Origin: Clostridia bacterium
GTDB taxonomy: Bacteria > Bacillota > Clostridia > Oscillospirales > CAG-272
DNA: 64,000 nt
Assembly (NCBI GenBank): GCA_017959065.1
Contig: JAGDBK010000064.1
Coordinates: 1,775 to 65,774, forward strand
Direction of reading: 5' to 3'
Positions 1-16,337 of the stretch are shown here, piece by piece. Each line of letters starts with the position of its first letter. Position 1 is the stretch's first letter. Made by a program: the position numbers and the translations under genes. Below the pieces are notes generated by a model that was not told where the DNA came from, ran no database searches, and saw nothing but the letters and a program-made list of their open reading frames with translations.

Positions 1-1784
1 TCTGCGGCGTTTTCCTTCAGATATGGATATACCGTATCCTCCTCCAGCACTTTTTTCATCCGGGCGAGAATCTTTGTGTGTATTTCTCCGTAACCTCCCG
101 GCCAGGAAATCTCCATTTTTCCGTCTACAGCTTTGACATAGATCAGTTTTCTGGGTATATCGAGTTCTTCAACTTCCCAGACTTTTCCGGCCAGGGCAAA
201 CCGGTCCCCGACCGGAGGCGGTGACGGAATGGTCCCGATCTCATCGGATCCGCAGCGGACGGTGAATTCCTCATCATCCCTGAAAACGGCATAGAAATGG
301 AAATCATTTACAAGACGTTCCCCTTTCAATCCGATGATCAGGGTCTTTTCGGCAGTGTACTCAAGGAAATCGTTTTCTATCATTGAGACGAGCAGACTGC
401 GGTAATCTTCCTTTGAAACATGTGAGAACGGCGGAAGCGAGAGAATCTTCTCTGCCATCCTTTTCGGAGACAGTTCACCCGAACACATAAGAAGGGAAAG
501 GGTCTGCTGGAAAAGCAGACTGAACGGAAGCTTTTTGTTTTGAGGAGGCTCGATGAAGCGCTCTTCCACATAGAGCTGGATGATAGCGATCGCCTGAAGC
601 AGGCTCCAGGGGATCAGCTGGGGCAGAGGAGTGTTCGGAAGGGGAACCCCTTCCCTGAAAACCATCATCATTTCCGGCGGAGCCTCTCTTCTTCCGGATC
701 TGCCCAGACGCTGAAGAAAAGACGACACCGAGTTCGGGGCCCCGTTGTGAAGGATCCTTTCCAAACGGCCTATGTCGATACCGAGCTCCATGGTCACAGT
801 AGCGCATACAACGCTCTGAACGTCCTCCTTGAGCTTTGATTCGGCATATTCCCGAAGAGATGCGGACAGGTTGCCGTGGTGTATCAGAAAAACGTCACGT
901 TCTCCGCGCGCTTTGGCGATCTGTCTTAAGGTCGCGGTAATGTATTCGGTCTCTTCGCGCGAGTTGGAAAAAACGATTGATTTTTTATCTTTTACGCAGT
1001 CGTACATATATTCATAGCCGGGGTCAAGCGCTGCGTGTGTCTTGCTTCCGGGGCCGTTTTTTTCTCCCGTATAAAAATGTTCGAGTCCGAGGCGCCATCT
1101 TATGCCGTTCCCTGGAAATTCTGGGACTATGGTACCTCTCCCGCTCCCCGCCTCAAGCCATTTCGCTGTCGTTTCAGTGTCTCCCACGGTAGCGGACAGT
1201 CCTATCCTCCTCGGTGAGCAGCCGGCGATTCCGGACAACCGGCACAACTGGCAGATTATCTGATATCCCCTGTCGTAGCCGATCAGTGAGTGAAGCTCGT
1301 CTATGATAACGAAACGGAGATTGCGGAATATCCGGATGATATCCGGGCCTCTGCGGATCAGCATGCTTTCCAGAGACTCGGGGGTTATCTGGAGCACTCC
1401 GGACGGATTGCTGAGGAATTTTGACTTTGAGGAGGAGGCGACATCGCCGTGCCATTTGGTAACCGGTATGCCTGTATAGTCCAGAAGCTGGTCTATCCGT
1501 GAAAACTGATCGTTTATCAGGCTTTTAAGCGGAGCGATATAAAGCACTCCGACAGATTCCGGCGGATCTGAACAAAGCATGGAGAGTATCGGGAAGAATG
1601 CCGCTTCGGTTTTGCCGGAAGCAGTGGAGGAAGTCAGAAGAAGGTTTTCCTCAGAGTTGAATATAGCTTCAGCGGCGGCAATCTGGATAGGTCTGAGTTC
1701 ATTCCAGCCGCGGGAATAGATATACTCCCGGATAAATGGTGTAAATCTCGAAAAGATCTCATCGGCAGTTGGAAGCTGATTCAT
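1..1784 (-). CDS. Lhr-like DExH-box SF2 helicase, first ~594 codons only (gene runs off the left edge); SngC-like third gene of a Shango-type operon
   Basis: The frame is open from ATG 1784..1782 (SD GGGGAGG 4 nt upstream) to the window edge. It is absent from the ORF track because it has no stop in the window. My translation begins MNQLPTADEIFSRFTPFIREYIYSRGWNELRPIQ. Motifs seen: Walker A TASGKTEA (1602-1625), motif II DELH (1290-1301), motif III GLSATVGD (1179-1202). Confidence 0.85.
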   Translation of the reverse strand, partial: MNQLPTADEIFSRFTPFIREYIYSRGWNELRPIQIAAAEAIFNSEENLLLTSSTASGKTEAAFFPILSMLCSDPPESVGVLYIAPLKSLINDQFSRIDQLLDYTGIPVTKWHGDVASSSKSKFLSNPSGVLQITPESLESMLIRRGPDIIRIFRNLRFVIIDELHSLIGYDRGYQIICQLCRLSGIAGCSPRRIGLSATVGDTETTAKWLEAGSGRGTIVPEFPGNGIRWRLGLEHFYTGEKNGPGSKTHAALDPGYEYMYDCVKDKKSIVFSNSREETEYITATLRQIAKARGERDVFLIHHGNLSASLREYAESKLKEDVQSVVCATVTMELGIDIGRLERILHNGAPNSVSSFLQRLGRSGRREAPPEMMMVFREGVPLPNTPLPQLIPWSLLQAIAIIQLYVEERFIEPPQNKKLPFSLLFQQTLSLLMCSGELSPKRMAEKILSLPPFSHVSKEDYRSLLVSMIENDFLEYTAEKTLIIGLKGERLVNDFHFYAVFRDDEEFTVRCGSDEIGTIPSPPPVGDRFALAGKVWEVEELDIPRKLIYVKAVDGKMEISWPGGYGEIHTKILARMKKVLEEDTVYPYLKENAA

Positions 1785-1804
1785 GTTACCTCCCCAAAAC
1801 GCTG

Positions 1805-3160
1805 TCACAGATCAAAATCTGTCAAGCTGACGCCTGCTTTTTTCTCGACACCGTTGTTCTTTTCGGCACCGGTCCTCGTATCTGCCGGCGCGATGGATTT
1901 CAGAAGCTGATCAAAAGATGCGGATCCGTCCTGCATGAGTATGTCAAGGATCTCCAGATAGTCCCTTATTACTTCGCGGGGCGTTATCATAACATTTGCG
2001 CCCATCCGTGAAAGTTCGACTTCCAGAAAGGCGATCCGCTGCTCGCCGCTGACAGTCACTGAATCCGGATAGTACTGTTTGTGAAGGATCGAAAGCCGGG
2101 TGATCAGGGCCAGCAGTTCATTGTCCGAGAGAGGACGCAGCCGTATCAGAGGGCTTAAAAGATTGGTATAGTTCTTTCCCAGAAAAGCTCCTTCGGACAG
2201 ACGGCTTCTCAGAGCTTCGTAGCTGAAAAGACCTCTTCTGGTATCTTCCAGGAATTCCGGAGTTCCACCGAAAATAAACACCAGACCCGGGGCCCGACCG
2301 CCAAGAGTATCGTTGAAGATCGAAAGGATCTTTTCGTAATTGCCTTCTCTGGAGATCCTGTTCGGAATCTTGAAAAGATTGACGCATTCGTCTATCAGTA
2401 CCAGAAGTCCGGAGAAACCGATCTTTTTCGCAAAACTTGCGAGCAGTTTTATGTAATCGTACCAGTTGTCATCGAAGATAATCGAGGAGATCGGGATCCC
2501 GAGAGCGTTTCTTGCCTCGGTCTTCGTTGAGTACTCTCCGCGCAGCCATCTCAGGGCGGCGCTCTTTTTTTCGTCGTCATCGTCTTCGTGTGCTTTGTAA
2601 TAATATGAAAGCACACTGGCAAAATCGAATCCGCCGACGGAGTCTTCTGTCTCGCGTATAACTTTGTATATTTTTGACCTGACCAGATCATTGTACTCTT
2701 CGGTGCCGGGGATCAGCCCGCTTTCCGCGGCCTGAGATCCGATGCCGGCAAAAAAAGAGGAGATGATTTTTGACAGGGCATTGCCGTCCGGGCAGGATCT
2801 CGAAGACATGTTCCTTATCAGTTCCCGATATGTCGCCGCACCGGCACCGGAAGAACCGAACAGTTTTCTGTCAGGCGAAAGATCTGCGTCACAAACCAGA
2901 AAGCCCCTGTCAAGAGCAGTCTCCCTTATAAGCTGCATAAGGAAGCTTTTGCCGGATCCGTAACGGCCGATAATAAACCTGGTGGAACACCCGCCGTCCG
3001 CGGCGCTGTCAAGATCCGCCGAAAGCGCGGCGACCTCTTTTTCTCTTCCGATCGCTATATAATGTGCCCCTTTGCGAGGCACGACCCCTGCGGAAACAGA
3101 AGTCAGTAACGATGAAAGGACCCTCTTCGGTATCATTGTCTCATTATCGGAAGGTTTCAT
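1805..3160 (-). CDS. P-loop ATPase of the DUF2791/BrxD-like family (SngB-like)
   Basis: ORF 1805..3163; ATG at 3160 follows an in-frame TTG. Walker A is RFIIGRYGSGKSFL and Walker B is LLVLIDECVN. Its stop lies 20 nt before the helicase ATG. Confidence 0.8.
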   Translation of the reverse strand: MKPSDNETMIPKRVLSSLLTSVSAGVVPRKGAHYIAIGREKEVAALSADLDSAADGGCSTRFIIGRYGSGKSFLMQLIRETALDRGFLVCDADLSPDRKLFGSSGAGAATYRELIRNMSSRSCPDGNALSKIISSFFAGIGSQAAESGLIPGTEEYNDLVRSKIYKVIRETEDSVGGFDFASVLSYYYKAHEDDDDEKKSAALRWLRGEYSTKTEARNALGIPISSIIFDDNWYDYIKLLASFAKKIGFSGLLVLIDECVNLFKIPNRISREGNYEKILSIFNDTLGGRAPGLVFIFGGTPEFLEDTRRGLFSYEALRSRLSEGAFLGKNYTNLLSPLIRLRPLSDNELLALITRLSILHKQYYPDSVTVSGEQRIAFLEVELSRMGANVMITPREVIRDYLEILDILMQDGSASFDQLLKSIAPADTRTGAEKNNGVEKKAGVSLTDFDL

Positions 3161-3272
3161 CAAAATACCAGCGATTCTCCGTCCGGAAAGCGGCGGAGAG
3201 GATCGCTATCCCTTCAAACAGAATTTTTATATCATTAATCGGCCTGCGTCAGGCTGCCTGTTTTTCTGTCGG

Positions 3273-4946
3273 TCAGCAGACCGGGAACAAAAAACGTGAG
3301 ACTGCGTCACGGTATTCTTCAATGACCGAATAGCCTTTGTCTGTTTCCTCAAGCAGAATGTCTCCGAATGAGGAAACGGCTTTGTCATTTACGGATGAAG
3401 CTGTGTTGTCGGCGTCGATTCCCCGGATCCCCTGCTTGCCGGAAACGATGTCTTTGAGAAAACGTTTTTCCTCTTCGGACAATGAGGAAAAAATGTCGGC
3501 AAATCCGTCATCCTGAACTTCTTCAGCTGATTCCTGCGCGATGTTATCCCGCTCTGACGAAAAGCTTTGAACTGAATCATCAGAGGCGCTGCCTTCTTCG
3601 GCGTGCGTTTCATAACTGTCAGAACGCCTGTCGAGCAGAACGGCCATCTCCCAGGAGTTTTTCTCGATCTCGTCGGACAGCTTTATGTCAAATCCGGTAT
3701 GTAAAGGCTCGTATTTTTTCAAATACTCTTCGTCCTGGGCCTCAGCTCTGACTCCGCCGGTTCCATGCGGTTTTTTTGCCGCGGAAAGCGGAAGCTCTGA
3801 ATCGAGGTATTCGTACAGAACAGATCTTATCCTTTCCGGAAGCTGCGGTGCATTAAGCTTTTTTCTCAGGCCCAGAAATGAGCGTATCCGATTCTCCGTG
3901 TTTTTAACGACAGCCGTGACCAGCGCCTTGAGCTCGATTGATTCCGAGAATGAATAATACTCGATATCCAGATGCAGCCTGACATTCTGCGACGGAAGGG
4001 AAGCGGTATAGGCATCCCTTGATTTGAGCGTAAGGACCGGGGAGATGTTCCTGAGTTCAGTGTGTTCCGAGATATAGGAGAGGGCTCCGGCCATGTGCTT
4101 TGAAAACAGATCGGCGTTCTCTTCGGTAAGGATCTTGCTGTCATGCCAGTTGTAGGCGGAAGTGAGATCGATCAGCGCGGAAGATAAAATGCTGTTTTTA
4201 TCTGAATGCTCGCCTGATACGCCTGCGAGGAACAGTTCTTTAATCGATGCTTTTTTTAGTATTCTGCCTATGATCGGGCGGAGTTTGTCCCTGTCGGGAA
4301 GAAGTTTGTGGATCAGGCAGTAGTCGCACATCCATTCGCACAGATACTTATCCAGTTCAGGGAAAGAATTCCTGTAATTCAGCCATATGTCGGACATCGC
4401 AGCCAGTCCGGCCATCGGTTCAATAAGATCGGGAAAGTTTATGATCTCATACAGCATGAGGAGCAGATAGCTCAGGTCCGCTTTCGGGAAAGTACCATGC
4501 CTGACGGAGTTCCTGAGATAATAATAATAATTCAGCTGACTGCGGCTCATTGACGAATACTGCGGTATATACGAAAAGAAAGGCTGATAATCGCATTCTT
4601 CCGCGGCAGTTCCAATATTCTTGCGGCCGAATGAAATGAAATGATCATAGAAACAGTAAGGGGAGCGCCTGGAGCTGACGGTCACGTTGCCGAAAAGCGG
4701 GGAATCCGGGTGATATACGTAAAGAATCTTTGAATTGACGGGACCGGATTCTTTAAACGATAATCTGAGAGAATCCTTTGGAATATCGGCGCCGGCTTCG
4801 CCGGGATTAGCGGGAAGATCGATTTCAGCGGCCGCGGCTGTATCCGGCCGCTCTGCAGAGACAGGCGGCTTTGGCGGCTTATTGGATGATTTTTCCAGAA
4901 GCTCGCTCAGATCCCAGAATTTCTCGGACCATTCCGGCATAGGCAC
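3273..4946 (-). CDS. TerB-N / TerB-C domain protein (SngA-like)
   Basis: 557 aa; SD GGAGGAG lies upstream of ATG 4946. TerB-N-like block: FFSYIPQYSSMSRSQLNYYYYLRNSVRHGTFPKADLSYLLLMLYEIINFPD. A Pro/Ala-rich N-terminus, an acidic linker and a C-terminal block consistent with TerB-C are present. Confidence 0.75.
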   Translation of the reverse strand: MPMPEWSEKFWDLSELLEKSSNKPPKPPVSAERPDTAAAAEIDLPANPGEAGADIPKDSLRLSFKESGPVNSKILYVYHPDSPLFGNVTVSSRRSPYCFYDHFISFGRKNIGTAAEECDYQPFFSYIPQYSSMSRSQLNYYYYLRNSVRHGTFPKADLSYLLLMLYEIINFPDLIEPMAGLAAMSDIWLNYRNSFPELDKYLCEWMCDYCLIHKLLPDRDKLRPIIGRILKKASIKELFLAGVSGEHSDKNSILSSALIDLTSAYNWHDSKILTEENADLFSKHMAGALSYISEHTELRNISPVLTLKSRDAYTASLPSQNVRLHLDIEYYSFSESIELKALVTAVVKNTENRIRSFLGLRKKLNAPQLPERIRSVLYEYLDSELPLSAAKKPHGTGGVRAEAQDEEYLKKYEPLHTGFDIKLSDEIEKNSWEMAVLLDRRSDSYETHAEEGSASDDSVQSFSSERDNIAQESAEEVQDDGFADIFSSLSEEEKRFLKDIVSGKQGIRGIDADNTASSVNDKAVSSFGDILLEETDKGYSVIEEYRDAVSRFLFPVC

Positions 4947-4967
4947 TCCTCCTGACGGATAGAATTC

Positions 4968-5007
4968 GAAACAAAAGCGGGCTTCACTTCTGATGGGAAA
5001 GCCCGCT
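4968..5007 (-). terminator. Intrinsic terminator after the MGS-like gene
   Basis: 9-bp stem AGCGGGCTT (4976-4984) pairs with AAGCCCGCT (4999-5007). On the minus strand it is followed by TTTTGTTT. Confidence 0.6.
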
Positions 5008-5055
5008 AAAGGAATTAAGACGATTCAGCTTTTCGCTGCTGCGGCAGCGCCGCGG

Positions 5056-5490
5056 TTATTTGTTCGCCTTCTTTTTCTGGTTATAATAAGAATGTGGGTT
5101 AACCAGCTCTCTCCAGTCCAGGTCGCCGCGGTCCAGGGCACATATCAGCGCTTCGGCAGTGGCTATGTTGGTCGCTGTCGGAACATTGTGAACATCGCAC
5201 ATGCGAAGGAGACTGTATTTGTTGTCTTTGTCCGCCTGACTTTCATCCGGACTGTGGAAGATCAGAAGAACATCTATCTCATCGTATGCAACGCGGGAAG
5301 TTATCTGCTGAAGCGCGTCCTGATCCTGAGACAGGATGCATTCGATGTCGAGTCCAGTGGCTTCGGATATATATTTTCCGGTTGAACCGGTTGAACACAA
5401 TTCGTGCTTACTGAGGATCCCGCAGTAGGCAATGCAGAACTGGGTCATCAGTTCCATTTTGGTTTCATCGGATATGACTGCAATTACCAT
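5056..5490 (-). CDS. MGS-like (methylglyoxal synthase fold) protein with substituted catalytic residues
   Basis: Start refined to ATG 5490 (SD GGAGGA; sequence MVIAVISDETK...). It aligns without gaps, by eye, to MgsA: HELCSTGSTG vs H.LYATGTTG and NVPTATNIATA vs N.P.ATN..TA. However AHD becomes ISD, GGDQQ becomes DALQQ, and PHDPD becomes ADKDN. Confidence 0.75.
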   Translation of the reverse strand: MVIAVISDETKMELMTQFCIAYCGILSKHELCSTGSTGKYISEATGLDIECILSQDQDALQQITSRVAYDEIDVLLIFHSPDESQADKDNKYSLLRMCDVHNVPTATNIATAEALICALDRGDLDWRELVNPHSYYNQKKKANK

Positions 5491-5504
5491 TAATATCCTC
5501 CTTT

Positions 5505-6308
5505 TTAACGAGTCAGAAGTTTCTTGCGGCTTATGTTTTTCCAACCTTTGAACAGCGGTACACTGTTTCCCGAGATCCTTGCGGCAATGTTTCTGAATGC
5601 TGACGTAACATTGCGGCAGTCAAGATCGGAGGCGAGCTGGCCGTGTTCTCCTCCTATGGCGAACTCTTCGCTGAAGGGAATGATCCCAATGGTGGGAAGG
5701 ACTGCTTTTTCTATCATTTCGATAATACCGACCCTGTTCCCTACAAGAACAGATTCGGCGTCAAACTCGTTGATTATCAGAAAGCAGTTTCTGAGGCCCA
5801 GCGAATAGAGCGCGGAGGCAGAACTGTCAGCCGCTCTCAGGGCGGTCGGATGATGTGTTGAAACGATCAGAGCGGTATCGGAGACGGAGGATGCAAGTTC
5901 AAGAGGCTTTCCGAGCGCTCCGGGCGTATCAATCAGAATGTAGTCCAGTTCCATGTCTCTGGCGGCCGTTTCGAGAGCGGCCTTGAAGCTTTCCTCCTCT
6001 GGAATGGAGTCGTCGGGGGAAAACGGATCAAGATACGGAGCAGATACAGAAAACAGACCGGAACTGCGACGGTCGGCGACAGAAGCGACCGACATCGGTA
6101 CTGTCCCGCGGCACACGTCGCTGATGTCATACAGCCCGGAACTCTCGGCCCCGAGTATCAGGTCCAGACAGCGATTGCTGAAATCGCAGTCGACAAGCAG
6201 AACCCGGCTGCCCGCTTCTGCAAGATAATATCCCAGATTCGCGGTAACGGTCGACTTACCAACGCCGCCTTTGCAGGAAGTGATAAGTATTGTTCTACAT
6301 CTTTTCAT
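5505..6308 (-). CDS. MinD/ParA-family P-loop ATPase (MinD-like, orphan)
   Basis: Deviant Walker A is TSCKGGVGKSTVTANLG. The MinD-like stretch LLVDCDFSNRCLDLILGAE..YDISDV is present. The basic/amphipathic C-terminus is PLFKGWKNISRKKLL. Its stop is 14 nt before the MGS-like ATG. Confidence 0.8.
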   Translation of the reverse strand: MKRCRTILITSCKGGVGKSTVTANLGYYLAEAGSRVLLVDCDFSNRCLDLILGAESSGLYDISDVCRGTVPMSVASVADRRSSGLFSVSAPYLDPFSPDDSIPEEESFKAALETAARDMELDYILIDTPGALGKPLELASSVSDTALIVSTHHPTALRAADSSASALYSLGLRNCFLIINEFDAESVLVGNRVGIIEMIEKAVLPTIGIIPFSEEFAIGGEHGQLASDLDCRNVTSAFRNIAARISGNSVPLFKGWKNISRKKLLTR

Positions 6309-6433
6309 CTCAGTACAATGATGAGGTCCTGATTCAGAGATCGGACAGCATCCTTTCCGAATTTGATCTCAATGACTTGTGGAGACGATGTCCCTGAAAG
6401 CATACGGTTACAAGACAGGGTCTGTACCGGGAA

Positions 6434-7066
6434 TCACCCGATCAGGGAGTCAATTATCGGGGAAACGTATTTGCAGTAAAGCCCGCCGATGTACTCTGCA
6501 CCTTCGGGCGACGGATGTACGCCGTCTTTACCGAACGTGAGGGGATCCATGCCGAGAGTTCCGGCATACAGGAGTCCGTCGGTCGGGACAAAAGCATCCG
6601 CATACTCAAGGGCAAGCTTTCTGACTATGTCGATCTTCGGGTCAAGATCTTCGCGGAAGAACAGCATGCCTTCGTTATGAAGGATAAACGGTTCCATCAG
6701 CATTATCTTTGCGTTGGTCTTCTCCTTGATCGCGTCGAGAATGGTGCGGTAACGTTCCTCGAACACTTCCCCGGGGATCCAGCTGCGGTCGTCCGCGTGG
6801 TGCCAAACGTCGTTGACGCCTATCATGATGGAAACGATATCGGGCTGTATGTCGATAAAATCTCTCTGGAGGCGGGCAACGAGGTCCTTGGTCTGGTGTC
6901 CGCTTATTCCGAGGTTGATGAATTCAAACTCAATATCCGGGTATTTTGCGCTGATTTTTTCAGAGGCATATTTCGGGTAGCCTTTTCCCATATCGTGATA
7001 GTTGCTGTGATCACGGAATGCGTCGGTAACACTGTCTCCCTGAAACAGAATCTTGATTTTTTTCAT
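6434..7066 (-). CDS. SGNH/GDSL-family hydrolase
   Basis: Block I is FQGDSVTD, followed by GVNDVWH, and block V is DGVHPS. SD AGGAGAAA precedes ATG 7066. Confidence 0.85.
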   Translation of the reverse strand: MKKIKILFQGDSVTDAFRDHSNYHDMGKGYPKYASEKISAKYPDIEFEFINLGISGHQTKDLVARLQRDFIDIQPDIVSIMIGVNDVWHHADDRSWIPGEVFEERYRTILDAIKEKTNAKIMLMEPFILHNEGMLFFREDLDPKIDIVRKLALEYADAFVPTDGLLYAGTLGMDPLTFGKDGVHPSPEGAEYIGGLYCKYVSPIIDSLIG

Positions 7067-7516
7067 AATAGATTTCTCCTGTCTTAGGATTTGAGATTAA
7101 TGGCGGAAGGTAAAAAAGCCCTATATAAAATACTATCTCTTTTTTTATTAAAAATCAATAGTTGCCGGACTAATAATGATAGTTTCGCTACGGTTTCGTC
7201 AATTCGGCAGGAGTCTGCATTCCCGGTCCCGAACATATCGCGCGGGGCTGCGGGCCCGGTCCCGGGATCAGCTGTCTCAGAAGCGGTGACCTGGCATTGG
7301 CGGGCGGTTTCGGGGGCCGCATTATGGATGTTTTTTCAGTTTTTATGCATTTTCGGCTGCCTATCTGCGTACAGGCTGCGGATGCCATCCCGGAGTAAAA
7401 GGTACGGGACACCCGGAAAAGACGGATACGATGGTTCTGTCCGAAAGACGGTCTTCCTTGAGGTTGATCCGGGACCGCGGCGGGTCCGGACGGAGTGTAT
7501 TTGTTTCCAAAAATTA

Positions 7517-7545
7517 TTGTAAAAAAACCGCTGCTGCTGTATAAT
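7517..7545 (+). promoter_or_regulatory. Putative sigma-A promoter of glyA
   Basis: TTGTAA (7517-7522), 17-nt spacer, TATAAT (7540-7545), with TG immediately upstream. Confidence 0.5.
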
Positions 7546-7656
7546 CATAAAGTGGGCGAAGATGTGTTTCCGTTTGTGAAACGGGCCCATCTTTCCGGCT
7601 TTTTTATAGCATTTATACGGACATGCCCAATGATGATTAGACACGGGAGACGGGAA

Positions 7657-8907
7657 ATGATTGCAAAAACCAATATGGATCTTCTGGAGAAATTCGATCC
7701 GGAAATAGGCGCCGCAATAAAGGCGGAATTCAAGCGTGAGAGCGACGGACTGGAACTGATCGCCTCAGAAAATGTCGTGTCCGAAGCTGTCCTGCTTGCC
7801 ATGGGAAGTGTTCTTACAAACAAGTATGCTGAGGGATATCCCGGGAAAAGGTACTACGGCGGATGCGAGTGTGTGGATGTCGTTGAGAATATCGCAATAG
7901 AGAGAGCCTGCAGACTTTTCGGATGCAACTTTGCTAACGTGCAGCCTCACAGCGGAGCGCAGGCGAATTTTGCGGTCTATTATGCATTCCTCAAACCCGG
8001 GGACAAGGTCCTGGGAATGAATCTTGCCCATGGCGGGCATCTTACTCACGGCAGCCCGGTGAACGTTTCCGGTTCATATTTTGAATTCGTACCTTACGGA
8101 GTCGACGAGACGACCGGACGGATAGACTACGACAAGGTCGCCGAACTGGCGGAAAGGGAGAAGCCGAAACTGATAGTTGCCGGCGCATCCGCTTATCCCA
8201 GGATAATTGATTTCAAAAGAATGGCCGAGATAGCGCACGGCAACGGAGCGATGCTCATGGTTGACATGGCTCATATAGCTGGGCTTGTGGCCGCCGGACT
8301 TCACCCGTCTCCGTTTCCGTATACTGATGTGGTCACGACCACGACCCACAAGACTCTTCGCGGTCCGCGCGGCGGTATGATACTCACCAATGATGAAGAA
8401 AAGGCAAAAGCAATCAACAAGGCGATTTTCCCGGGCACTCAGGGCGGACCTCTGATGCACGTTATCGCCGGAAAAGCGGTTTCGTTCGGTGAGGCGCTGA
8501 AGCCTGAGTTCAGATCTTATCAGCAGCAGATACTGAACAATGCCAAAGTGCTTGCGGATACGCTTGTCAGCGAAGGTTTCTCGCTTGTTTCGGGCGGGAC
8601 GGACAACCACCTTATGCTTTGCGATCTCAGACCGTTTGCCGTGACAGGCAAAGAGATGGAACACCGCCTGGACGAGGTCCATATAACCGTCAACAAGAAC
8701 TCGATACCCAATGATCCGGAAAAGCCGTTCGTTACCAGCGGCATCAGAATAGGCACTCCGGCGGTGACTTCCAGGGGACTTGCGGAAGACGACATGAGAG
8801 TTCTGGGAAAACTGATCAGACAGTGTGCCACGGATTTTGAGGCCTGCAAGGATGTCATAAGGGAAACGGTCATAGGTATTTGCAGAAAATACCCGATCTA
8901 CGAGTGA
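7657..8907 (+). CDS. glyA: Serine hydroxymethyltransferase
   Basis: Start refined to ATG 7657 (SD GGGAGA; sequence [16 protein letters not shown]...). Motifs: [16 protein letters not shown] and [14 protein letters not shown]. Length is 416 aa. The upstream part of the track ORF is leader. Confidence 0.95.
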
Positions 8908-8920
8908 GAAAGCTGTATTT

Positions 8921-9415
8921 ATGAATGCAGAACGTAACGAAGCCGGGCTGAAAGCTGAAGCTGCCACGGCGCATCTCAAAAAAAGCGGAAAAACAGTCGC
9001 CACGGCAGAATCCTGTACCGGCGGACTGCTCGGAAAACTTATAACCGACAATCCCGGAGTCTCGGAGTTTTATCTTGGCGGCGCGGTGTGTTATTCAAAC
9101 GAAGCAAAGATACGGCTGCTCGGGGTGTCAGAGCGTACCATTTCGGAACACGGAGCCGTTTCCCGGGAAACGGCGGAGGAAATGGCTGAAGGAATTAGAA
9201 AGAAGCTCGGCGCTGATATCGGAGTATCAACGACAGGGATAGCCGGACCGGGCGGAGGCACCGAAAAAAAGCCGGTCGGTCTGGTATATGTCGGGATCAG
9301 CGACGGAAGCGGCGTTCGAAGTCATGAGCTTCGTTTAGGCAGCGGTCTTTCCAGAGATGAGATAAGAAACAGTACAGCGGAATTCGTATTTACTTTGTTA
9401 TCAGACAGCGAATAA
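8921..9415 (+). CDS. CinA C-terminal-domain protein / nicotinamide-nucleotide amidohydrolase (PncC-like)
   Basis: Motifs [21 protein letters not shown] and KPVGLVY; 164 aa, carrying only the CinA C-terminal domain. Confidence 0.85.
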
Positions 9416-9460
9416 TTCAATCCGCCGATGCGGCGGACAGATATTACAGGAGAAACAATT

Positions 9461-10525
9461 ATGGCAAGAAAATTTAGAAAAATCGGAGTATTGACATCAG
9501 GCGGAGACGCACCGGGAATGAATTCGGCTCTCAGAGAGGTAGCGCTGGAGGCTCTTTCTTCAGGTGTTGAAGTCCTGGGAATAATGAAGGGTTATACGGG
9601 ACTGATAAGCGGAGAACTAATGGAACTGACACCGGAGAGAGTCGCCGGTATTTCCCCTTTGAGCGGCACGATCCTCTATTCGGACAGATGCCTTGAATTT
9701 GCAACTGAAGAGGGAATGAAAAAGGCGGTCAGAACCTGCGAGCTCAATCAGATCGACGGTATAGTCGCAATCGGCGGCGACGGCACTTTCAGGGGAGCGA
9801 CCGATCTGACCCACCACGGCGTGCCCTGCATAGGGATACCCGGAACGATAGACAACGACATAACATCCACAGACTATACCATAGGTTTTGACACCGCAAT
9901 GAACACGGTCGTAGGGCTTGCGGATAATCTGAGGGATACCTGCGAGTCGCATGCCCGTTGCTCGGTAATAGAAGTCATGGGAAGAGACGCAGGGTATATT
10001 GCTGTCGAATCCGCGATAGCGGCCGGTGCAGTTGCCGTTGCGATACCTGAAGTTCCTTTTGATGAAGACAAGGCTGTCGAGCGGATAATCAAAGAAAGGA
10101 AAAACGGGACAAGAGCGTTTATAGTTATGGTCTCGGAAGGACTCGGATCTGAGTTCGGCGAGAAACTTACAAAGAGGATCAACGATGAAGCAAAGGTTGA
10201 GAGCAGATTTGCAAGACTCGCCCATGTGGTAAGAGGAGGCAAACCCACACTCAGAGACAGGCTTACCGCATCGATGATGGGTGAGAAAGCGGTAAAGGAG
10301 CTTCTTTCAGGCAAAAGCGATCTGGTGATTTGCGAGAAAGACAGCCGTATTGTGGCGAGAGATATTGATTATGCGCTTGTTCTCGACCGTCTTTATAAAA
10401 ACAAACTGAAAGACGGAGATCTGGAAAAATTCTCGGAAAAAGTAGTAGTCAAGATGAAAAAGGAAGCCGAGGAAGTTCGGCAGCTTGTTAAGGATCTGTA
10501 CACCACCGCAAACAGACTTGCCTGA
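9461..10525 (+). CDS. pfkA: ATP-dependent 6-phosphofructokinase
   Basis: Start refined to ATG 9461 (SD AGGAGA). Motifs: IGVLTSGGDAPGMN, IGGDGTFRGA and IPGTIDND. Confidence 0.9.
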   Translation: MARKFRKIGVLTSGGDAPGMNSALREVALEALSSGVEVLGIMKGYTGLISGELMELTPERVAGISPLSGTILYSDRCLEFATEEGMKKAVRTCELNQIDGIVAIGGDGTFRGATDLTHHGVPCIGIPGTIDNDITSTDYTIGFDTAMNTVVGLADNLRDTCESHARCSVIEVMGRDAGYIAVESAIAAGAVAVAIPEVPFDEDKAVERIIKERKNGTRAFIVMVSEGLGSEFGEKLTKRINDEAKVESRFARLAHVVRGGKPTLRDRLTASMMGEKAVKELLSGKSDLVICEKDSRIVARDIDYALVLDRLYKNKLKDGDLEKFSEKVVVKMKKEAEEVRQLVKDLYTTANRLA

Positions 10526-10560
10526 TATCGTTTTTCAACTATATGTTCAGGGGGTAAAGC

Positions 10561-11904
10561 ATGGAGAAGCTCAGAATCCACGAAAGCGGCAGATTTCTGG
10601 AATATGAAAGCGGCAAACCTTTTTTTTACCTTGGAGACACTGCATGGGATCTGGTTCACAGATTAACAAAGGACGAGATCGAACTCTATTTGTCCGTAAG
10701 GGCATCGCAGGGGTTCAATGTCATTCAGTGCGTAGCTTTGTCAGAATGGGCAAACAAGCACGGAAGATATGCACTGAAAGAGCCGAGGGACCGGCTTGAT
10801 TACGACGATGAAGGCGAGTATTCTTTCTGGGCCGGGCTGGACTTTTGCGTCGAATGCGCGGAAAAGTACGGAATATACATAGGAATGCTTCCGCTGTGGA
10901 ATACAAGCTACACTGATGGACCTATGGTATTTCAATCCTATGAGCCCGCTTTTGAATACGGTCGCTTCCTTGGAGACCGCTACAAGAATCACAATAACAT
11001 AATCTGGATCCTCGGCGGAGATGTCAAGGCGGAACCGTTTATGGATCCGGTCTTCAAGGGACTGGCAGAAGGAATCAAAGCCGGCGAAAAGGAAGACAAC
11101 CATCATCTGATCACATTCCACCCGCGCGGTCCTTCCGATACGGTAAGCGAGCTGAAAGGGGACAGAGATTACCTGGATTTCCTCGGCTGCCAGAGCGGGC
11201 ACACAGTCGGATGGTCATACGAGCCTTACAAGCTTTTCGAAAAACTGATACCGACAGGGAAACCTTATATCGATCTGGAACCTCATTACGAGGACCATGT
11301 GGCAAACTGGGTCCCGGAATTCAAGAGATACGATGCAAGCGATATCAGGCAGGGCGCATATGAGAGCGTTTTTGCAGGAGCCTGCGGACAGGGATACGGG
11401 AATCCGATAGTCGCTTTCTTCCTTTATGAGCCGCTGACTCAATACGGATGCGATTTCTACTTTGGAAATCTTATTGAAGACGGGCTCGACACCAAGGGTT
11501 GGCACCATGCCCTGCGTCATGAAGGGGCAGAGTCATTGAAACATCTGAAAAATCTAAGGCTGTCCAGACCGTATTTTGAGTTGAGACCTTCGCCGGAACT
11601 GGTTCTGAATTCAGATGATGACTATTTGTTTGGAAGGATCTCGGCCGCGCGCGGCGATGATTACGCATTTGTTTACTCTCCGCTCGGGAGGGAGATCCAA
11701 GTCGATTGTTCTCAGATAAACAAACAGTTTATACGCGCGTCGTGGTTCAATCCCAGGACCGGTGAAGAAAAACTCATATGCTATCAGAAGCCGAGAAAAT
11801 CCGTTTTTGTTCCGGAGACCTCCGGAAAAGGACAGGACTGGGTCCTGATACTTGACGGCGGAAAGCGGGACTGGAAAGAGATCGGCCAGATTACCCATGA
11901 GTGA
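10561..11904 (+). CDS. DUF4038 / GH140-like (apiosidase-like) glycoside hydrolase, copy 1
   Basis: N-terminus KPFFYLGDTAWDL...SQGFNVIQ is typical of DUF4038. It is the tandem paralogue of 11935..13293. Confidence 0.65.
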   Translation: MEKLRIHESGRFLEYESGKPFFYLGDTAWDLVHRLTKDEIELYLSVRASQGFNVIQCVALSEWANKHGRYALKEPRDRLDYDDEGEYSFWAGLDFCVECAEKYGIYIGMLPLWNTSYTDGPMVFQSYEPAFEYGRFLGDRYKNHNNIIWILGGDVKAEPFMDPVFKGLAEGIKAGEKEDNHHLITFHPRGPSDTVSELKGDRDYLDFLGCQSGHTVGWSYEPYKLFEKLIPTGKPYIDLEPHYEDHVANWVPEFKRYDASDIRQGAYESVFAGACGQGYGNPIVAFFLYEPLTQYGCDFYFGNLIEDGLDTKGWHHALRHEGAESLKHLKNLRLSRPYFELRPSPELVLNSDDDYLFGRISAARGDDYAFVYSPLGREIQVDCSQINKQFIRASWFNPRTGEEKLICYQKPRKSVFVPETSGKGQDWVLILDGGKRDWKEIGQITHE

Positions 11905-11934
11905 TCTGAGATCGAAAACAATAGGGAGGGCATC

Positions 11935-13293
11935 ATGCAGAGGCTGAAGATTTCGGACAACGGACATTTTCTTGCTTATGAGGACGGAAAACCGTTCTTC
12001 TATCAGGGAGACACTGCGTGGGATATGTTTCAGCGCCTTACGAGGGACGAAGTCGAACTGTACATGTCGGTCAGGGAATCGCAGGAATTCAATGTGCTCC
12101 AGTGCATTCTTCTCGGCGGTACCGAACCTTATGACTATCCGAACAAATACGGGCACACATCTATAAAACCCCCGTATGACAAGCTTGATTTTGATCTTGA
12201 CGGGGATAACTCATACTGGAATCATGTTGATTTCTGTCTCGACTGTGCTGAAAGGCACAATCTCTACATCGGCCTGCTTCCGATGTGGAACAACAAATAC
12301 AGCGATCCCGACGACACATTATTTACAGGATATGAACCGAGTTTCTATTACGGGAAGTTTCTGGGAGAGAGGTTCAAAGGCCGGAAGAACATCATATGGA
12401 TATTCGGGGGCGACGTTTCGGTCCTGCCCCATATGTATGATATTTTTCAGGGTCTGGCTGACGGGATCAAGGAAGGCGAGGGGGATGAACACAACCTCAT
12501 CACTTTCCACCCGAGAGGAAATGCGGACGCGGTCAGTGAGCTGAACGGGGACAAGCCGTATCTTGATTTCCTTTCTTCTCAAAGCGGACACACGGTGGAT
12601 TATTCATACGACCCCACTCAGTATTTCCCTCCTATGGCTGCGACAGGGAAACCGTTTTTCGATGCGGAGGCCCACTATGAAGACCATGTCGCGAACTGGT
12701 CGGAGGATCTGAAAAGATGGGACGGGGCTGATATCAGAGAAGGGGCATATGAGAGCGTTTTTGCAGGAGCCTGCGGACAGACATACGGTAATCCCATTGT
12801 CGCATTCTTCCTTTACGAGCCGCTCACTCAGTATAAATGTCCTTATTATATAGGCAATCTGAAGAAGTACGGATATGACATCAAAGGATGGAATCATGCC
12901 TTGAGGCATGAAGGAGCCGAGACCTTGAAGTATCTTCAGAGGCTGCGCCTGTCCCGGCCGTATTTTGACTTCAGGCCCGCCCCCGAACTGGTCGCCAATT
13001 CAGAAGATGATCTTTTGTTCGGACGTATATGCGCGGCGCGCGGAGAAGATTACGCATTCATTTATTCCCCGTACGGCAGAGAAATTAAGGTCGACTGTTC
13101 TCAGATAAAGAAGCAGTTTATCAGAGCGTCGTGGTTCAACCCCAGGACAGGGGAGGAGAAACTGATCTGCTATCTTACGGCCAGAAAAGCGGTCTTCGTA
13201 CCCGAGACCAGAGGAAAAGGACAGGATTGGGTCCTGGTGCTCGACGGCGGTAAGAGAGACTGGAAAGAGATAGGCCAGATGATCCACGAGTGA
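11935..13293 (+). CDS. DUF4038 / GH140-like glycoside hydrolase, copy 2
   Basis: Collinear with copy 1, with very high identity in the C-terminal third. An identical 36-nt DNA stretch occurs at 11356-11391 and 12745-12780. Confidence 0.65.
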   Translation: MQRLKISDNGHFLAYEDGKPFFYQGDTAWDMFQRLTRDEVELYMSVRESQEFNVLQCILLGGTEPYDYPNKYGHTSIKPPYDKLDFDLDGDNSYWNHVDFCLDCAERHNLYIGLLPMWNNKYSDPDDTLFTGYEPSFYYGKFLGERFKGRKNIIWIFGGDVSVLPHMYDIFQGLADGIKEGEGDEHNLITFHPRGNADAVSELNGDKPYLDFLSSQSGHTVDYSYDPTQYFPPMAATGKPFFDAEAHYEDHVANWSEDLKRWDGADIREGAYESVFAGACGQTYGNPIVAFFLYEPLTQYKCPYYIGNLKKYGYDIKGWNHALRHEGAETLKYLQRLRLSRPYFDFRPAPELVANSEDDLLFGRICAARGEDYAFIYSPYGREIKVDCSQIKKQFIRASWFNPRTGEEKLICYLTARKAVFVPETRGKGQDWVLVLDGGKRDWKEIGQMIHE

Positions 13294-13343
13294 CCGGCGA
13301 TCCCGTTGGGGGATTGAATCCAGGCTGATCGAAAGACAAAAAA

Positions 13344-13367
13344 GCCCTGCCTCGTTTGAGGCAGGGC
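13344..13367. terminator. Bidirectional intrinsic terminator between convergent genes
   Basis: GCCCTGCCTC-gttt-GAGGCAGGGC, flanked by an A-run upstream and T-rich sequence downstream. Confidence 0.7.
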
Positions 13368-13378
13368 CGTTTGATTTG

Positions 13379-14437
13379 TCAGGCGTCGAAAGCAACGACC
13401 TGTCCGAGTCTGTCGGATTCGCAGGCAGCTTCCATGAGTTTCATTACACGCATAAGCTGTTCGTGGGTTACGAGCTGAGTTGCTTTTCCGTCAAGAGTAG
13501 CTACCAGATTTCTGTAGAAGTCGTGAACGTCTGACTTTATCTCGGGATACGGAACTGTTTTGATCGTGTCATCGGTCCTGGGCGCCATTGTCTTTGTCAG
13601 GCCGGCAGCGGTTCTGATCGGAACAGCATCTTTAGCTTCCCAGTTGGTACAGCAGACGATTTTTCCTTTGGAGATGTTCCAGCTGCTTTTGGCTGTTCCG
13701 TCCTGGCCCTGAACATACCAGCGCGGAAGCTCAATGAAATTGGACGTCCCGACTTCAACATAGGCGCGGATGCCGTCCTCGAACATCATTACCATACGGA
13801 AACCGTCATCAACCTCGTAATTGGTGACATGGTCCATCGTACAGTAGACGGATTTGATCTTTTTCTGCGGGTAAAGAACATTAACGATCTGATCAAGAAG
13901 ATGAACGCCCCAGTCAAGCATCATACCGCCGCCGTGCTTCTTCATTCCGCGCCAGTCGCCCGGAATGCCGCGTGAACCGTGAACGCGGGATTCTATGTTG
14001 AACACGGGTCCGATAGTGCCTTCCTCAATTATCTGTTTCACCGCAAGGAAATCCTCGTCCCAGCGGCGGTTCTGATGAGTAGTGAACAGGACTTTGTTCC
14101 TTTTTGCCGTTTCTATCATTTCAGCAAGATCGGCAGACGACAGCGTAACGGGTTTCTCCGTGAAAACATTGTGTCCTCTGTTCATTGCCTCGATCGCGAG
14201 CGGCTTGTGCATATCGTTTTCGGTGGAGATCAGGATCAGGTCGATCCTCTTGTCTGCCAGAACCTCCTCAAACGAGGAGTAAGTATATATATTACGGCTT
14301 TTCGCATAATCGATGCGCTCCTGCTTGATGTCATATATCCCGAGCAGGGTGCACACGTCACTGTTTTCCAGTTCATGAGAATGCCAGTTGCCCATTCCGC
14401 CAAACCCAACAATAACCACATTCTTTTTTCTGTTCAT
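13379..14437 (-). CDS. Gfo/Idh/MocA-family NAD(P)-dependent oxidoreductase
   Basis: Start refined to ATG 14437 (SD AAGGGGA; sequence MNRKKNVVIVGFGGMGNWH). Rossmann N-terminus and an EKP motif (FTEKPV) are present. Confidence 0.85.
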   Translation of the reverse strand: MNRKKNVVIVGFGGMGNWHSHELENSDVCTLLGIYDIKQERIDYAKSRNIYTYSSFEEVLADKRIDLILISTENDMHKPLAIEAMNRGHNVFTEKPVTLSSADLAEMIETAKRNKVLFTTHQNRRWDEDFLAVKQIIEEGTIGPVFNIESRVHGSRGIPGDWRGMKKHGGGMMLDWGVHLLDQIVNVLYPQKKIKSVYCTMDHVTNYEVDDGFRMVMMFEDGIRAYVEVGTSNFIELPRWYVQGQDGTAKSSWNISKGKIVCCTNWEAKDAVPIRTAAGLTKTMAPRTDDTIKTVPYPEIKSDVHDFYRNLVATLDGKATQLVTHEQLMRVMKLMEAACESDRLGQVVAFDA

Positions 14438-14693
14438 ACTTAGTCCCCTTTGCCGCATACAATCACGTGAATACGGCAGTCTTCTTTCCTATGATAATCC
14501 GGATCCGAAGGCGGTGCTTTTTAGACCTCGCACCTTCCGGACCGTCATGGATATTATATAATACCAGGCTTTGTTTTTCAAGCAAAATGACAACAAAAAG
14601 AGTGCGTCGGACCGTCTTCGGCCCGGATCGCCATTCTCACGGCGGAGCCACTCAGCCGATCGCTGTATCGGCGTCCCCGCAGAGCGCTTTCCC

Positions 14694-14722
14694 TTGACAT
14701 CTATTTCCGTTTTTTCTATAAT
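14694..14722 (+). promoter_or_regulatory. Consensus sigma-A promoter of galU
   Basis: TTGACA (14694-14699), 17-nt spacer, TATAAT (14717-14722). Confidence 0.7.
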
Positions 14723-14840
14723 TAATCCGAATTGACAGACCACAGCCGTTGACGAGACGGCCGGCGGCGAATATGCACCGGATTTATCGCCGGTCTGATT
14801 TGATGTACCACAACGTTTTTTTAATTGCGAGGAAAAACAC

Positions 14841-15719
14841 ATGACGAAGAGAATCACCAAAGCAGTCATTCCCGCGGCCGGGCTGGGTACACGTATGCTG
14901 CCCATAGCTAGGGCGGTCCCTAAGGAGATGCTGCCTATCGTTGACAGGCCTGCAATGTCCTATTTGGTTGAAGAGGCTGCGAAAAGCGGAATTACAGATA
15001 TCCTCATAATCACCGGACGAGGCAAGGAGGCCATAGAGAATTATTTTGATTACAGTACGGAATACGACAGCAGACTTCTGGCCAAGGGAAAAGAAAGCAC
15101 TGTAAAGGAACTTCACAGAGAAGCGGAAGAAGTCAATGTCCATTTCATACGCCAGCTTGAACCCAAAGGACTCGGACACGCTATAAGACGCGCGAAATCA
15201 TTTGTCGGCAACGAACCGTTTGCCGTCCTTTACGGGGATGATATTATCTTTTCCGAGGTACCTGTGGTCAAGCAGCTCATAGGGCTCTTTGAAAAATACG
15301 GGAAGGCAGTTGTCGGCTCGAAAGAGGTTACTGTAGAACAGATCCAGAAATACAGTTCTCTGAAAGTTGAGAGCACCGGTACAAAAGACGAGTATTTTGT
15401 TTCAGACATGATCGAAAAGCCTTCACCGGACCAGATCTTTTCGCTCCTGACCATACTCGGACGAGTGATCCTGACTCCGGATATTTTTGATATTCTCGAT
15501 AACACGGAGCCGGGAGCCGGTGGGGAGATCCAGCTGACGGACGCGATGAAAGTGCTTTCTAATACAGTCGGAATGACCGCGCTTATTTTTGAGGGTACTC
15601 GTTATGATCTCGGTTCAAAGCTTGGGTTGCTTACTGCCAATGTTGACAGAGCGCTCAGGGACGAAAGTATCGGGCCGGCATTCAGAGAGTATTTGAAGAC
15701 TGTATGCAAAGGTCTTTGA
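14841..15719 (+). CDS. galU: UTP--glucose-1-phosphate uridylyltransferase
   Basis: Motifs KAVIPAAGLGTRMLPIARAVPKEMLPIVD and VLYGDD. Confidence 0.92.
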   Translation: MTKRITKAVIPAAGLGTRMLPIARAVPKEMLPIVDRPAMSYLVEEAAKSGITDILIITGRGKEAIENYFDYSTEYDSRLLAKGKESTVKELHREAEEVNVHFIRQLEPKGLGHAIRRAKSFVGNEPFAVLYGDDIIFSEVPVVKQLIGLFEKYGKAVVGSKEVTVEQIQKYSSLKVESTGTKDEYFVSDMIEKPSPDQIFSLLTILGRVILTPDIFDILDNTEPGAGGEIQLTDAMKVLSNTVGMTALIFEGTRYDLGSKLGLLTANVDRALRDESIGPAFREYLKTVCKGL

Positions 15720-15764
15720 GGTGATAAGGCCAGGACAAAAACTTTAAGGTGATTGATAAACAAT

Positions 15765-16253
15765 ATGGAAAGAGTATCAAAAGAAAACTATTACCTTGAT
15801 ATCGCCCAGACCGTTGCAGAACGGTCAACCTGCCTGAGGCGGGCATTCGGAGCGATAATTGTCAAAAATGACGTAATAGTATCCACCGGCTACAACGGAG
15901 CTCCCAGAGGAAGAGTCAACTGCTGCGACAGGGGAACATGCATTAGGGAAGATATGAATATTCCGAGAGGGGAAAGATACGAGCTTTGCCGGTCGGTCCA
16001 TTCGGAAGCCAATGCCATAATAGCCGCCCCGCGAGAACAGATGCTGGGTTCTACTCTGTATATGGTCTGTTTGGATCCGAAGGACAAGTCTCTTCAAAGC
16101 GGAACATCTTCCTGCATGATGTGCAAGAGGATGATCATAAATGCCGGCATCTCGAAGGTCGTCATAAGGGACACGGAAAATGAATTTCGGACGATCGACG
16201 TTCAGGACTGGATAACAAACGACGACAGCCTTTCCGGACAGTTCGGATACTGA
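15765..16253 (+). CDS. dCMP (deoxycytidylate) deaminase, ComEB-like
   Basis: ATG 15765 (the track ORF starts at TTG 15753). Zinc motifs are HSEANAI and SCMMCKRMIINAGI. Confidence 0.85.
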   Translation: MERVSKENYYLDIAQTVAERSTCLRRAFGAIIVKNDVIVSTGYNGAPRGRVNCCDRGTCIREDMNIPRGERYELCRSVHSEANAIIAAPREQMLGSTLYMVCLDPKDKSLQSGTSSCMMCKRMIINAGISKVVIRDTENEFRTIDVQDWITNDDSLSGQFGY

Positions 16254-16337
16254 AAGGACTCTCCCGGCATGGCCATTCCGCGTGTTTGAGATCAAAAACG
16301 ATTTGATCAATTAATTTGTAAGGATGACCGGTTTGAC

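Follow-up and report, generated by a model that had tools for sequence, protein, structure and literature searches.

A three-gene operon at the left end of a stretch of DNA from an uncultured ruminant-gut Clostridia bacterium raises the question of whether the Shango anti-phage system is carried there as a working set of genes and, if so, how it came to be there and how it might act. The source contig (JAGDBK010000064.1, assembly GCA_017959065.1, 70,408 bp) belongs to a metagenome-assembled genome (MAG) with the protein accessions MBP5236578 to MBP5236619, and the stretch analysed here, called the window, is 64,000 nucleotides long; the operon consists of sngA, sngB and sngC on its minus strand. 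Shango was named as a TerB-containing system and tested in E. coli (Millman et al. 2022). In a second study the P. aeruginosa PA14 operon was described as a TerB-like protein, an ATPase and a DEAD/DEAH helicase, and was found to protect 10-100-fold on plates and strongly in liquid culture across phage doses (Johnson et al. 2023). The original prediction, made from the sequence without searches, had named these two papers as the sources of Shango and described the tested examples as proteobacterial and the mechanism as unsolved. The papers do name or test Shango, in E. coli and P. aeruginosa hosts, and a preprint of September 2025 still calls it unclear how TerB-containing defence proteins protect. 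Our literature search returned no mechanistic paper on SngA, SngB or SngC.

Taken as a whole, the evidence set out below is probably best explained by a functional chromosomal Shango that was acquired once, has been kept vertically and serves as a cytoplasmic, nucleic-acid-directed defence. Gene content, catalytic motifs, purifying selection, homology to a validated family and syntenic history were read from the operon and its relatives, whereas the target, and which protein senses, which loads and which acts, are what we infer.

Assignment of the operon to Shango

All three PADLOC Sng models were the top matches to the three proteins and aligned over nearly their full length (SngA, 9.9e-42, model positions 83-524 of 528; SngB, 3.3e-160, positions 3-422 of 439; SngC, 2.9e-215, positions 4-590 of 720, the remainder lying beyond the window), which upholds the composition and order first proposed for the operon. 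With E-values from 1e-41 to 3e-215 these hidden Markov model (HMM) matches are not due to chance. The Pfam domains anticipated for the trio were also recovered. SngA matched TerB_N (4.8e-14, 53 bits against a cut-off of 25) and TerB_C (3.8e-5), the latter at 24.4 bits and just below its cut-off of 26.3, which is passed by SngA orthologues such as those of contigs L087, L088 and L001. SngB matched BrxC_BrxD (2.6e-144, positions 1-412 of 414), and SngC matched DEAD (2.3e-28), Helicase_C (6.9e-14) and, weakly, WH_Lhr. None of the three proteins has an NCBIfam equivalog, and the BrxD and Lhr-type models of that collection scored far under their cut-offs. The genes are adjacent and co-directional in the A-B-C order that is a feature of Shango, and the same order was found in about 55 GTDB loci and in one annotated Paenibacillus plasmid. 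As far as sequence can tell, every defining feature of Shango is present in the window operon.

The first gene, sngA (3273-4940, minus strand), would encode a soluble protein of 555 amino acids (aa). In the open reading frame (ORF) list it runs over 3273-4946 with a GTG start and 557 aa, as it was first reported; the frame stands, but the start is most likely ATG 4940, because the ribosome-binding site GGAGGAG (4946-4952) sits 5 nt upstream of this ATG and GTG 4946 lies inside GGAGGAG. Gene callers likewise give a 555-aa SngA on near-identical contigs, which come from ENA metagenome assemblies. The second gene, sngB (1805-3160, minus strand, 451 aa), has a TTG start at 3163 in the ORF list (1805-3163, 452 aa), and a further candidate start at 3136 would give 443 aa; the start at 3160 is favoured over the latter because the related contig L085 has CTG where the window has ATG 3136. 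The third, sngC (1-1784, minus strand), is cut by the window edge, so that the first 594 of about 736 codons are present, and its frame reads from ATG 1784 to base 3 with no stop.

The genes had been described as three co-directional and tightly spaced genes. Their direction and the close spacing of sngB and sngC, which are separated by 20 nt (1785-1804, minus strand) containing a GGGGAGG ribosome-binding site, bear this out, but sngA and sngB are more loosely joined, with a gap of 110-136 nt. This spacer (3161-3272, minus strand) contains a stem-loop just upstream of the sngB start, and was considered as an RNA element. The candidate was rejected, as the fold of -38.1 kcal/mol has a z-score of -1.64, which is not significant, and as its pairing is only partly kept in L085, although the base of the stem is kept in L085 and L095. 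An Rfam scan of the whole window gave no match. The spacer of about 110 nt is confined to the window lineage and L085, and sngA and sngB abut or overlap in L087, L088, L091 and L001.

The motifs quoted in the original prediction were all located in the three proteins. SngB is a BrxD-family (PF10923/DUF2791) P-loop ATPase of the ORC/Cdc6 type, with the Walker A motif GRYGSGKS at residues 65-72 (K71 in the 451-aa numbering) and the Walker B motif LLVLIDE at residue 252; a sequence search of the PDB with SngB returned nothing meaningful. SngC is a superfamily 2 DExH helicase resembling the Lhr core, in which motifs I, II, III and VI are intact (TASGKTEA at residue 54, DELH at 162, GLSATVGD at 195 and QRLGRSGRR, motif VI, at 358). 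Its closest PDB entries by sequence were MrfA/YprA and Lhr (6znp, 1e-29; 5v9x, 2e-29). When an AlphaFold2 (AF2) model of full-length SngC was searched with Foldseek the top match was 5v9x_A, the M. smegmatis Lhr core with single-stranded DNA and AMP-PNP (E 2.2e-21, template modelling scores 0.54/0.52), followed by MrfA (6znq) and Hel308. The model has a mean predicted local distance difference test (pLDDT) score of 73 and is of low confidence over residues 225-256 and 330-386; it suggests a RecA1-RecA2-winged helix-domain 4 order that can be superposed on Lhr and is shared with MrfA (YprA). Unlike Lhr and MrfA, to which its identity is 15-20%, SngC scores far below the NCBIfam cut-off and is encoded with SngA and SngB, not alone or with a ligase. 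The DUF1998/MZB zinc module was not detected in SngC.

SngA is the least familiar of the three. Its TerB_N block carries the motif FFSYIPQYSS...EIINFPD at residue 121, and its predicted domain order begins with a short N-terminal motif and a disordered linker, continues with a beta-hairpin and the helical core of TerB_N and then a central alpha/beta region, and closes with an acidic linker and TerB_C. The AF2 model of SngA, for which 43 sequences were aligned (mean pLDDT 80.4), places a short helical motif at residues 4-14, a disordered linker at 15-66, a well-predicted core of beta-hairpin, helical and alpha/beta elements at 70-390, an acidic disordered linker at 444-475 and, at the C-terminus, a TerB_C domain of helix-helix-helix-beta-hairpin-helix topology. 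Neither a sequence profile search of the PDB nor Foldseek at E<=0.001 gave a match, and SngA is accordingly a structurally uncharacterised protein with a confident model and no PDB counterpart; the one hint was a weak resemblance of its C-terminal domain to the ModE winged helix (Foldseek probability 0.47). The family itself is large, with 3,705 clusters at 50% identity and E<=1e-3.

The description of the first gene as a TerB protein needs to be divided. TerB_N and TerB_C are present, and TerB proper (PF05099) is not, as it went undetected in Pfam scans of the window SngA at E<=0.01 and even at E<=10, and was carried by none of 47 SngA homologues. Since the PADLOC SngA model aligns co-linearly (83-524 of 528), a further domain would not fit. 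SngA is also predicted to lack a transmembrane segment, its maximum Kyte-Doolittle hydropathy, KD(19), being 1.18; across SngA, SngB and SngC no nuclease, toxin, pore or transmembrane domain was found in Pfam searches and the KD(19) maxima were 1.18-1.54.

As a separate observation, residues 1-14 of SngA (window 4899-4940, minus strand) carry a motif, DxFWDLxxLLPKK, that the members of the Firmicute SngA subfamily have in common; about 50 residues of variable, disordered linker come after it. The segment looks like a tethered docking peptide.

Compared with Shango of E. coli and P. aeruginosa PA14, the window operon has the same three families in the same order, near full-length Sng matches and intact motifs. 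It differs in lying in an uncultured MAG of ruminant-gut Clostridia, outside any defence hotspot, where it keeps a constant place among housekeeping genes and is inherited vertically in its clade. It also differs in a SngA of the Firmicute subfamily, with the N-terminal motif and long disordered linkers, in the sngA-sngB spacer of about 110 nt, and in being known from sequence alone. In a GTDB scan the best SngB match among species representatives had an identity of at most 60%, and the nearest relatives were ruminant and rabbit gut MAGs. A-B-C operons were common among the GTDB matches, in Clostridia, Lachnospiraceae, Oscillospiraceae, Selenomonas, Coriobacteriaceae, Lentisphaeria, Synergistaceae and one Heimdallarchaeote, and the three genes are also annotated together on a Paenibacillus megaplasmid in RefSeq. 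As Shango-type operons are abundant in Firmicutes, a Clostridial host is unremarkable, and in this respect the operon adds little that is new; it would be flagged by PADLOC or DefenseFinder.

Integrity and history of the locus

Since the window ends inside sngC, the original prediction left room for a helicase that is truncated or pseudogenised beyond the edge. This proved not to be so. On L095, a 126-kb contig of the same lineage with 96-99% nucleotide identity, the sngC frame stays open beyond window position 1 and meets its stop after 427 nt, with PHP and Opp genes behind it. P0001, a SngC cluster representative of 736 aa that is 96% identical to the window fragment, is encoded directly after SngA and SngB on two contigs. 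The final 142 codons are open in L095 and P0001, where they were seen in place of the source contig. No frame of the operon is broken in the window, L082, L083, L085 or L086, and the same holds for L095 outside its scaffold gaps. An apparent deletion of sngB and of the 5' end of sngC in L095 was considered and rejected, as the sequence there consists of two runs of 100 N, that is, scaffold gaps.

Nei-Gojobori estimates of dN/dS between the window and L085 were 0.152 for sngA, 0.054 for sngB and 0.025 for sngC, and between the window and L095 they were 0.141, 0.073 and 0.037, a pattern that indicates purifying selection on all three genes, including the helicase (0.025-0.037). The higher overall value of SngA (0.14-0.15) at first allowed it to be taken for a fast-evolving arms-race sensor. 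This idea was dropped, as a test by segment puts the excess mainly in the disordered linkers, with omega of 0.36 and 1.23 (the latter for about residues 444-476), against 0.24 for TerB_C and 0.05-0.07 for the folded core, and so gives no evidence of diversifying selection.

Directly upstream of sngA lie two genes that are not part of the system, an MGS-like gene (5056-5490, minus strand; Pfam MGS) and a MinD/ParA-like P-loop gene (5505-6308, minus strand; ParA/CbiA matches). Between the 3' end of the MGS-like gene and sngA there is a boundary element (4968-5007, minus strand) made up of a terminator-like hairpin, AGCGGGCUUU...AAGCCCGCU (4976-5007), and a U-run. The hairpin has a stem of 9-10 bp in both the minimum-free-energy and centroid folds, and its position is kept with compensatory changes in five lineages (the window, L085, L087, L088 and L091). 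The gap between this U-run and the ribosome-binding site of sngA is only about 25 nt.

What follows the MGS-like gene differs between relatives. SngA, SngB and SngC follow it in L082 and L095, which represent a near-identical lineage (MinD identity 100% and 97%), in L085 (MGS identity 93%), in L087 (MinD 65%, SHMT 83%) and in L088 (GCA_964525525.1; MinD 61%). In L091 (MinD 60%) SngA and SngB are followed by a hairpin and a convergent gene, and the helicase is absent. L089 and L090 (both MinD 48%) have no Shango there, the MGS-like gene being followed by ThrRS in the former and by an aminotransferase in the latter. The MinD-like, MGS-like, SngABC order is thus common to four diverged lineages, the window, L085, L087 and L088 (MinD 61-100%). 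Between the window and L087 dN was 0.29 for SngB and 0.19 for SngC, and 0.29 and 0.24 for the flanking MinD and MGS genes. The simplest reading of this synteny is that Shango was acquired a single time, directly after the MinD/MGS terminator in the ancestor of a small clade, and then was retained vertically for a long period, although the lineages sampled are few.

Because Shango is missing at the MinD/MGS locus in L089 and L090, the block appears to be accessory. The possibility that the three genes are universally conserved core genes of the clade, which had been raised together with the prediction, is therefore not borne out at this locus as a whole, but within its own subclade the block is stably inherited and does not behave as a fast-exchanged island gene; it was found at the locus in 4/4 sampled subclade lineages and partly in L091, a sample drawn across lineages. 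One chromosomal position thus offers a natural series of SngABC, SngAB only (L091) and empty sites (L089, L090), which provides material for studying how Shango works. A JGI metagenome scan with the MinD-like protein returned a single irrelevant locus.

No integrase or mobile-element gene was found in the window or in the 7-kb left flank, and the window has no tRNA or Rfam feature. The GC content of the Shango block (0.503) is typical of the other window segments (0.490 +/- 0.015). Its tetranucleotide distance (0.171) exceeds that of the other 5-kb segments (0.134 +/- 0.013, maximum 0.161) by about 2.8 standard deviations, a weak signal. The operon had been called the only defence module in the window, and a PADLOC scan of the 40 other ORFs of at least 144 aa agrees with this, as it gave generic cross-matches only. 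Matches to SspH/mad8, mad3/AriA, mad2 and PbeA elsewhere in the window were set aside as FtsK, an amino-acid ABC ATPase, an RlmL-type methyltransferase and Mfd. The remaining window genes are housekeeping (SHMT, CinA, PFK, Mfd, FtsK, PNPase, ThrRS, GDH, GS and ABC transporters), together with two apiosidase-like paralogues.

Mode of action and competing explanations

In a comparative study of 2026 it was reported that BrxD and BrxHI are tightly linked, and it was suggested that an ORC/Cdc6 AAA+ ATPase may load or activate a Ski2-like helicase with winged helix-turn-helix, beta-barrel and Lhr-CTD-like DNA-binding modules. In sequence, SngB is homologous to BrxD and SngC to BrxHI of type 2 BREX (Pgl), an adjacent ATPase and helicase from which the loader-helicase logic proposed here is borrowed; secondary PADLOC matches linked SngB to BrxD (1.5e-45) and SngC to BrxHI (7.3e-123). 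SngABC would then be a cytoplasmic defence directed at nucleic acid. SngA may be a soluble scaffold or sensor that recognises a phage-derived cue or a DNA or protein intermediate, and SngB, as an ORC/Cdc6-type AAA+ ATPase, would oligomerise in an ATP-driven manner and load or activate SngC. The latter would act as an Lhr-like translocase on phage DNA or on RNA:DNA replication intermediates, the solved Lhr enzyme moving 3'-to-5', and could stall phage replication directly, with no need for a nuclease or a membrane toxin. The published protection in liquid culture across phage doses fits such direct interference better than abortive infection.

Several observations weigh against a nucleic-acid-directed Shango defence of this kind. 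Anti-phage activity has been demonstrated for the E. coli and P. aeruginosa homologues only, and there it is modest (10-100-fold). The locus does not appear to be a defence island, and the retention of one chromosomal position across deep divergence is unusual for defence genes. A scan of the minus strand from the boundary hairpin to sngA gave no sigma-70-like promoter, so sngABC may depend on read-through from the MinD and MGS genes or on an unconventional promoter. The folded core of SngA is as constrained as SngB and SngC, and hence there is no arms-race signature on a recognition surface. A winged helix-turn-helix-like reading of TerB_C, which draws on the topology of the model and the single weak ModE match, can be made only provisionally. 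Lastly, a sister clade and the syntenic L091 keep SngA and SngB without an adjacent helicase, and the helicase may therefore not be the essential effector.

These helicase-less SngA-SngB pairs, from ruminant-gut Clostridia, are the closest GTDB relatives of the window operon (SngB 55-60%, SngA 28-30% identity over full length). They were found with intact frames in L001 (8382-11365), L002-L005, L007, L018, L030 and L091 (1869-4854), of which L001-L005, L007 and L018 form a clade sister to the window SngB clade. Like the window proteins they give strong SngA and SngB HMM matches; unlike the window they have no adjacent SngC, and no SngC-like helicase was found within up to about 10 kb downstream, where housekeeping genes lie instead. 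In these lineages the helicase may be dispensable or supplied in trans. It is possible, though on balance doubtful, that the SngA-SngB pair is the conserved functional unit, with an exchangeable or dispensable helicase, and that the operon is a long-term resident of a housekeeping locus expressed by read-through. If so, the effector of Shango would not be the helicase, and the system would be nearer to a constitutive hybrid of genome maintenance and immunity than to a mobile defence-island set. A two-gene SngA-SngB form would escape three-gene calling rules for Shango.

In one of the helicase-less loci, L003, a 903-aa protein of the FtsK/HerA type (13863-16574) is encoded about 2.5 kb downstream of SngA-SngB, with strong PADLOC matches to SspH (1e-58) and mad8 (1e-35). 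This may be a neighbouring defence protein or an FtsK-like one with a housekeeping role.

The fixed position also bears on a second explanation, namely that the operon is a domesticated or never-immune, Ter-associated system of DNA processing or repair that responds to endogenous DNA damage or stress. Anantharaman and colleagues are said to have first framed this operon type, in 2012, as a DNA-processing system. The closest solved relatives of SngC, Lhr and MrfA, are DNA-repair helicases, and the operon sits beside housekeeping genes in four diverged lineages, with substitution rates equal to those of its flanks and under strong purifying selection. It has neither defence-island neighbours nor mobile-element genes, and Shango gave no match in phage records or IMG/VR viral contigs. 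Moreover, it stands directly behind the MinD/MGS terminator with its own promoter undetected, which makes co-expression by read-through possible. However, models derived from validated anti-phage Shango fit the three proteins far better than those of any repair family do; the NCBIfam models for Lhr and for ligase-associated DEXH helicases gave 207 bits, where the cut-offs are about 850. Distant relatives lack the block at this locus, so that it appears to be accessory, and the homologous BrxD-BrxHI pairs are dedicated components of BREX. We regard a repair system as unlikely.

A third explanation accepts Shango but not the mode of action, and holds that a 'TerB' domain in SngA senses membrane perturbation while SngB and SngC trigger arrest or death, that is, membrane surveillance with abortive infection. 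Membrane surveillance was suggested for Bunzi and Shango by Millman et al. 2022 and in later reviews, since TerB associates with the membrane, and a review table gives PF05099 for Shango. SngA does share the 'TerB' label, and the idea of Ter proteins in phage defence, with BnzA of Bunzi, DinB of Dionysus and TerB of the ter operon. Unlike those TerB-domain systems, SngA and its homologues have only TerB_N (PF13208) and TerB_C (PF15615), with no transmembrane helices and no pore-forming partner, and the data on membrane association belong to TerB proper. The absence of PF05099 and of a hydrophobic segment from SngA weakens the membrane-surveillance idea, as does the lack of room for a further domain in its co-linear alignment, although peripheral binding could still occur in proteins that, like these three, have neither a transmembrane nor a strongly hydrophobic segment. 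The domain searches turned up no pore, toxin or nuclease, and the liquid-culture protection across doses speaks against classic abortive infection. Surveillance of the membrane is thus rather improbable, and the composition of SngA points instead to a cytoplasmic ATPase-loader and helicase mechanism of the kind common to BrxD-BrxHI of type 2 BREX.

That the operon is a decaying remnant, its helicase truncated or the whole in the course of being lost, seems very improbable. The window edge does cut sngC, and L091 lacks it. In L081, a metagenome scaffold with 99.85% identity to window 1053-7131, a GGGG run (window 3424) is short of 1 nt, so that sngA is frameshifted and ends at 516 aa; homology also stops inside sngC at window 1053, where the scaffold goes on as 428 nt of AT-rich DNA in which Rfam found no match. 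These L081 anomalies may reflect decay or disruption of Shango at the level of the strain, or an artefact of assembly; an assembly error is equally likely because of where they lie, in the GGGG run and at the end of the scaffold. Against decay stand the intact frames of the other contigs, dN/dS of 0.03-0.15 and the scaffold gaps that account for the seeming loss in L095.

An orphan fragment of type 2 BREX (BrxD and BrxHI) beside an unrelated TerB_N gene, to which the BrxD and BrxHI matches noted above and an NCBIfam BREX_BrxD score of 155.9 bits might point, is hardly credible, as that score is far below its cut-off of 350, the Sng models outscore the Brx models by 532 to 154 bits for SngB and 715 to 409 bits for SngC, the PglX methyltransferase, PglZ, BrxC and PglW were not found among the 40 other window ORFs scanned with PADLOC or among the Pfam assignments of the flanks, including the 7-kb left flank, and the TerB_N/TerB_C partner found in their stead, SngA, is kept as the first gene in most loci.

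Rearrangements and other genes of the window

When window 1-16250 is compared with L087, the segment from SngC through MinD, SHMT and CinA runs the opposite way round, and one of the inversion breakpoints falls at the 3' end of sngC. Genes for GFO_IDH_MocA, NTP-transferase and dCMP-deaminase, which adjoin sngC in L087, are found at 13385-16250 in the window. L087 has four tandem GDSL-lipase paralogues (2792-5407 of that contig) where the window has one (6434-7066).

Toward the other end of the window, two adjacent minus-strand ORFs (59656-61635 and 61660-63030) encode proteins of 659 aa and 456 aa with no Pfam match at E<=1e-5 and no PADLOC match. The two apiosidase-like paralogues lie in tandem on the plus strand at 10561-13293, carry collagen-binding domains as well and are about 76% identical to each other in nucleotide sequence.

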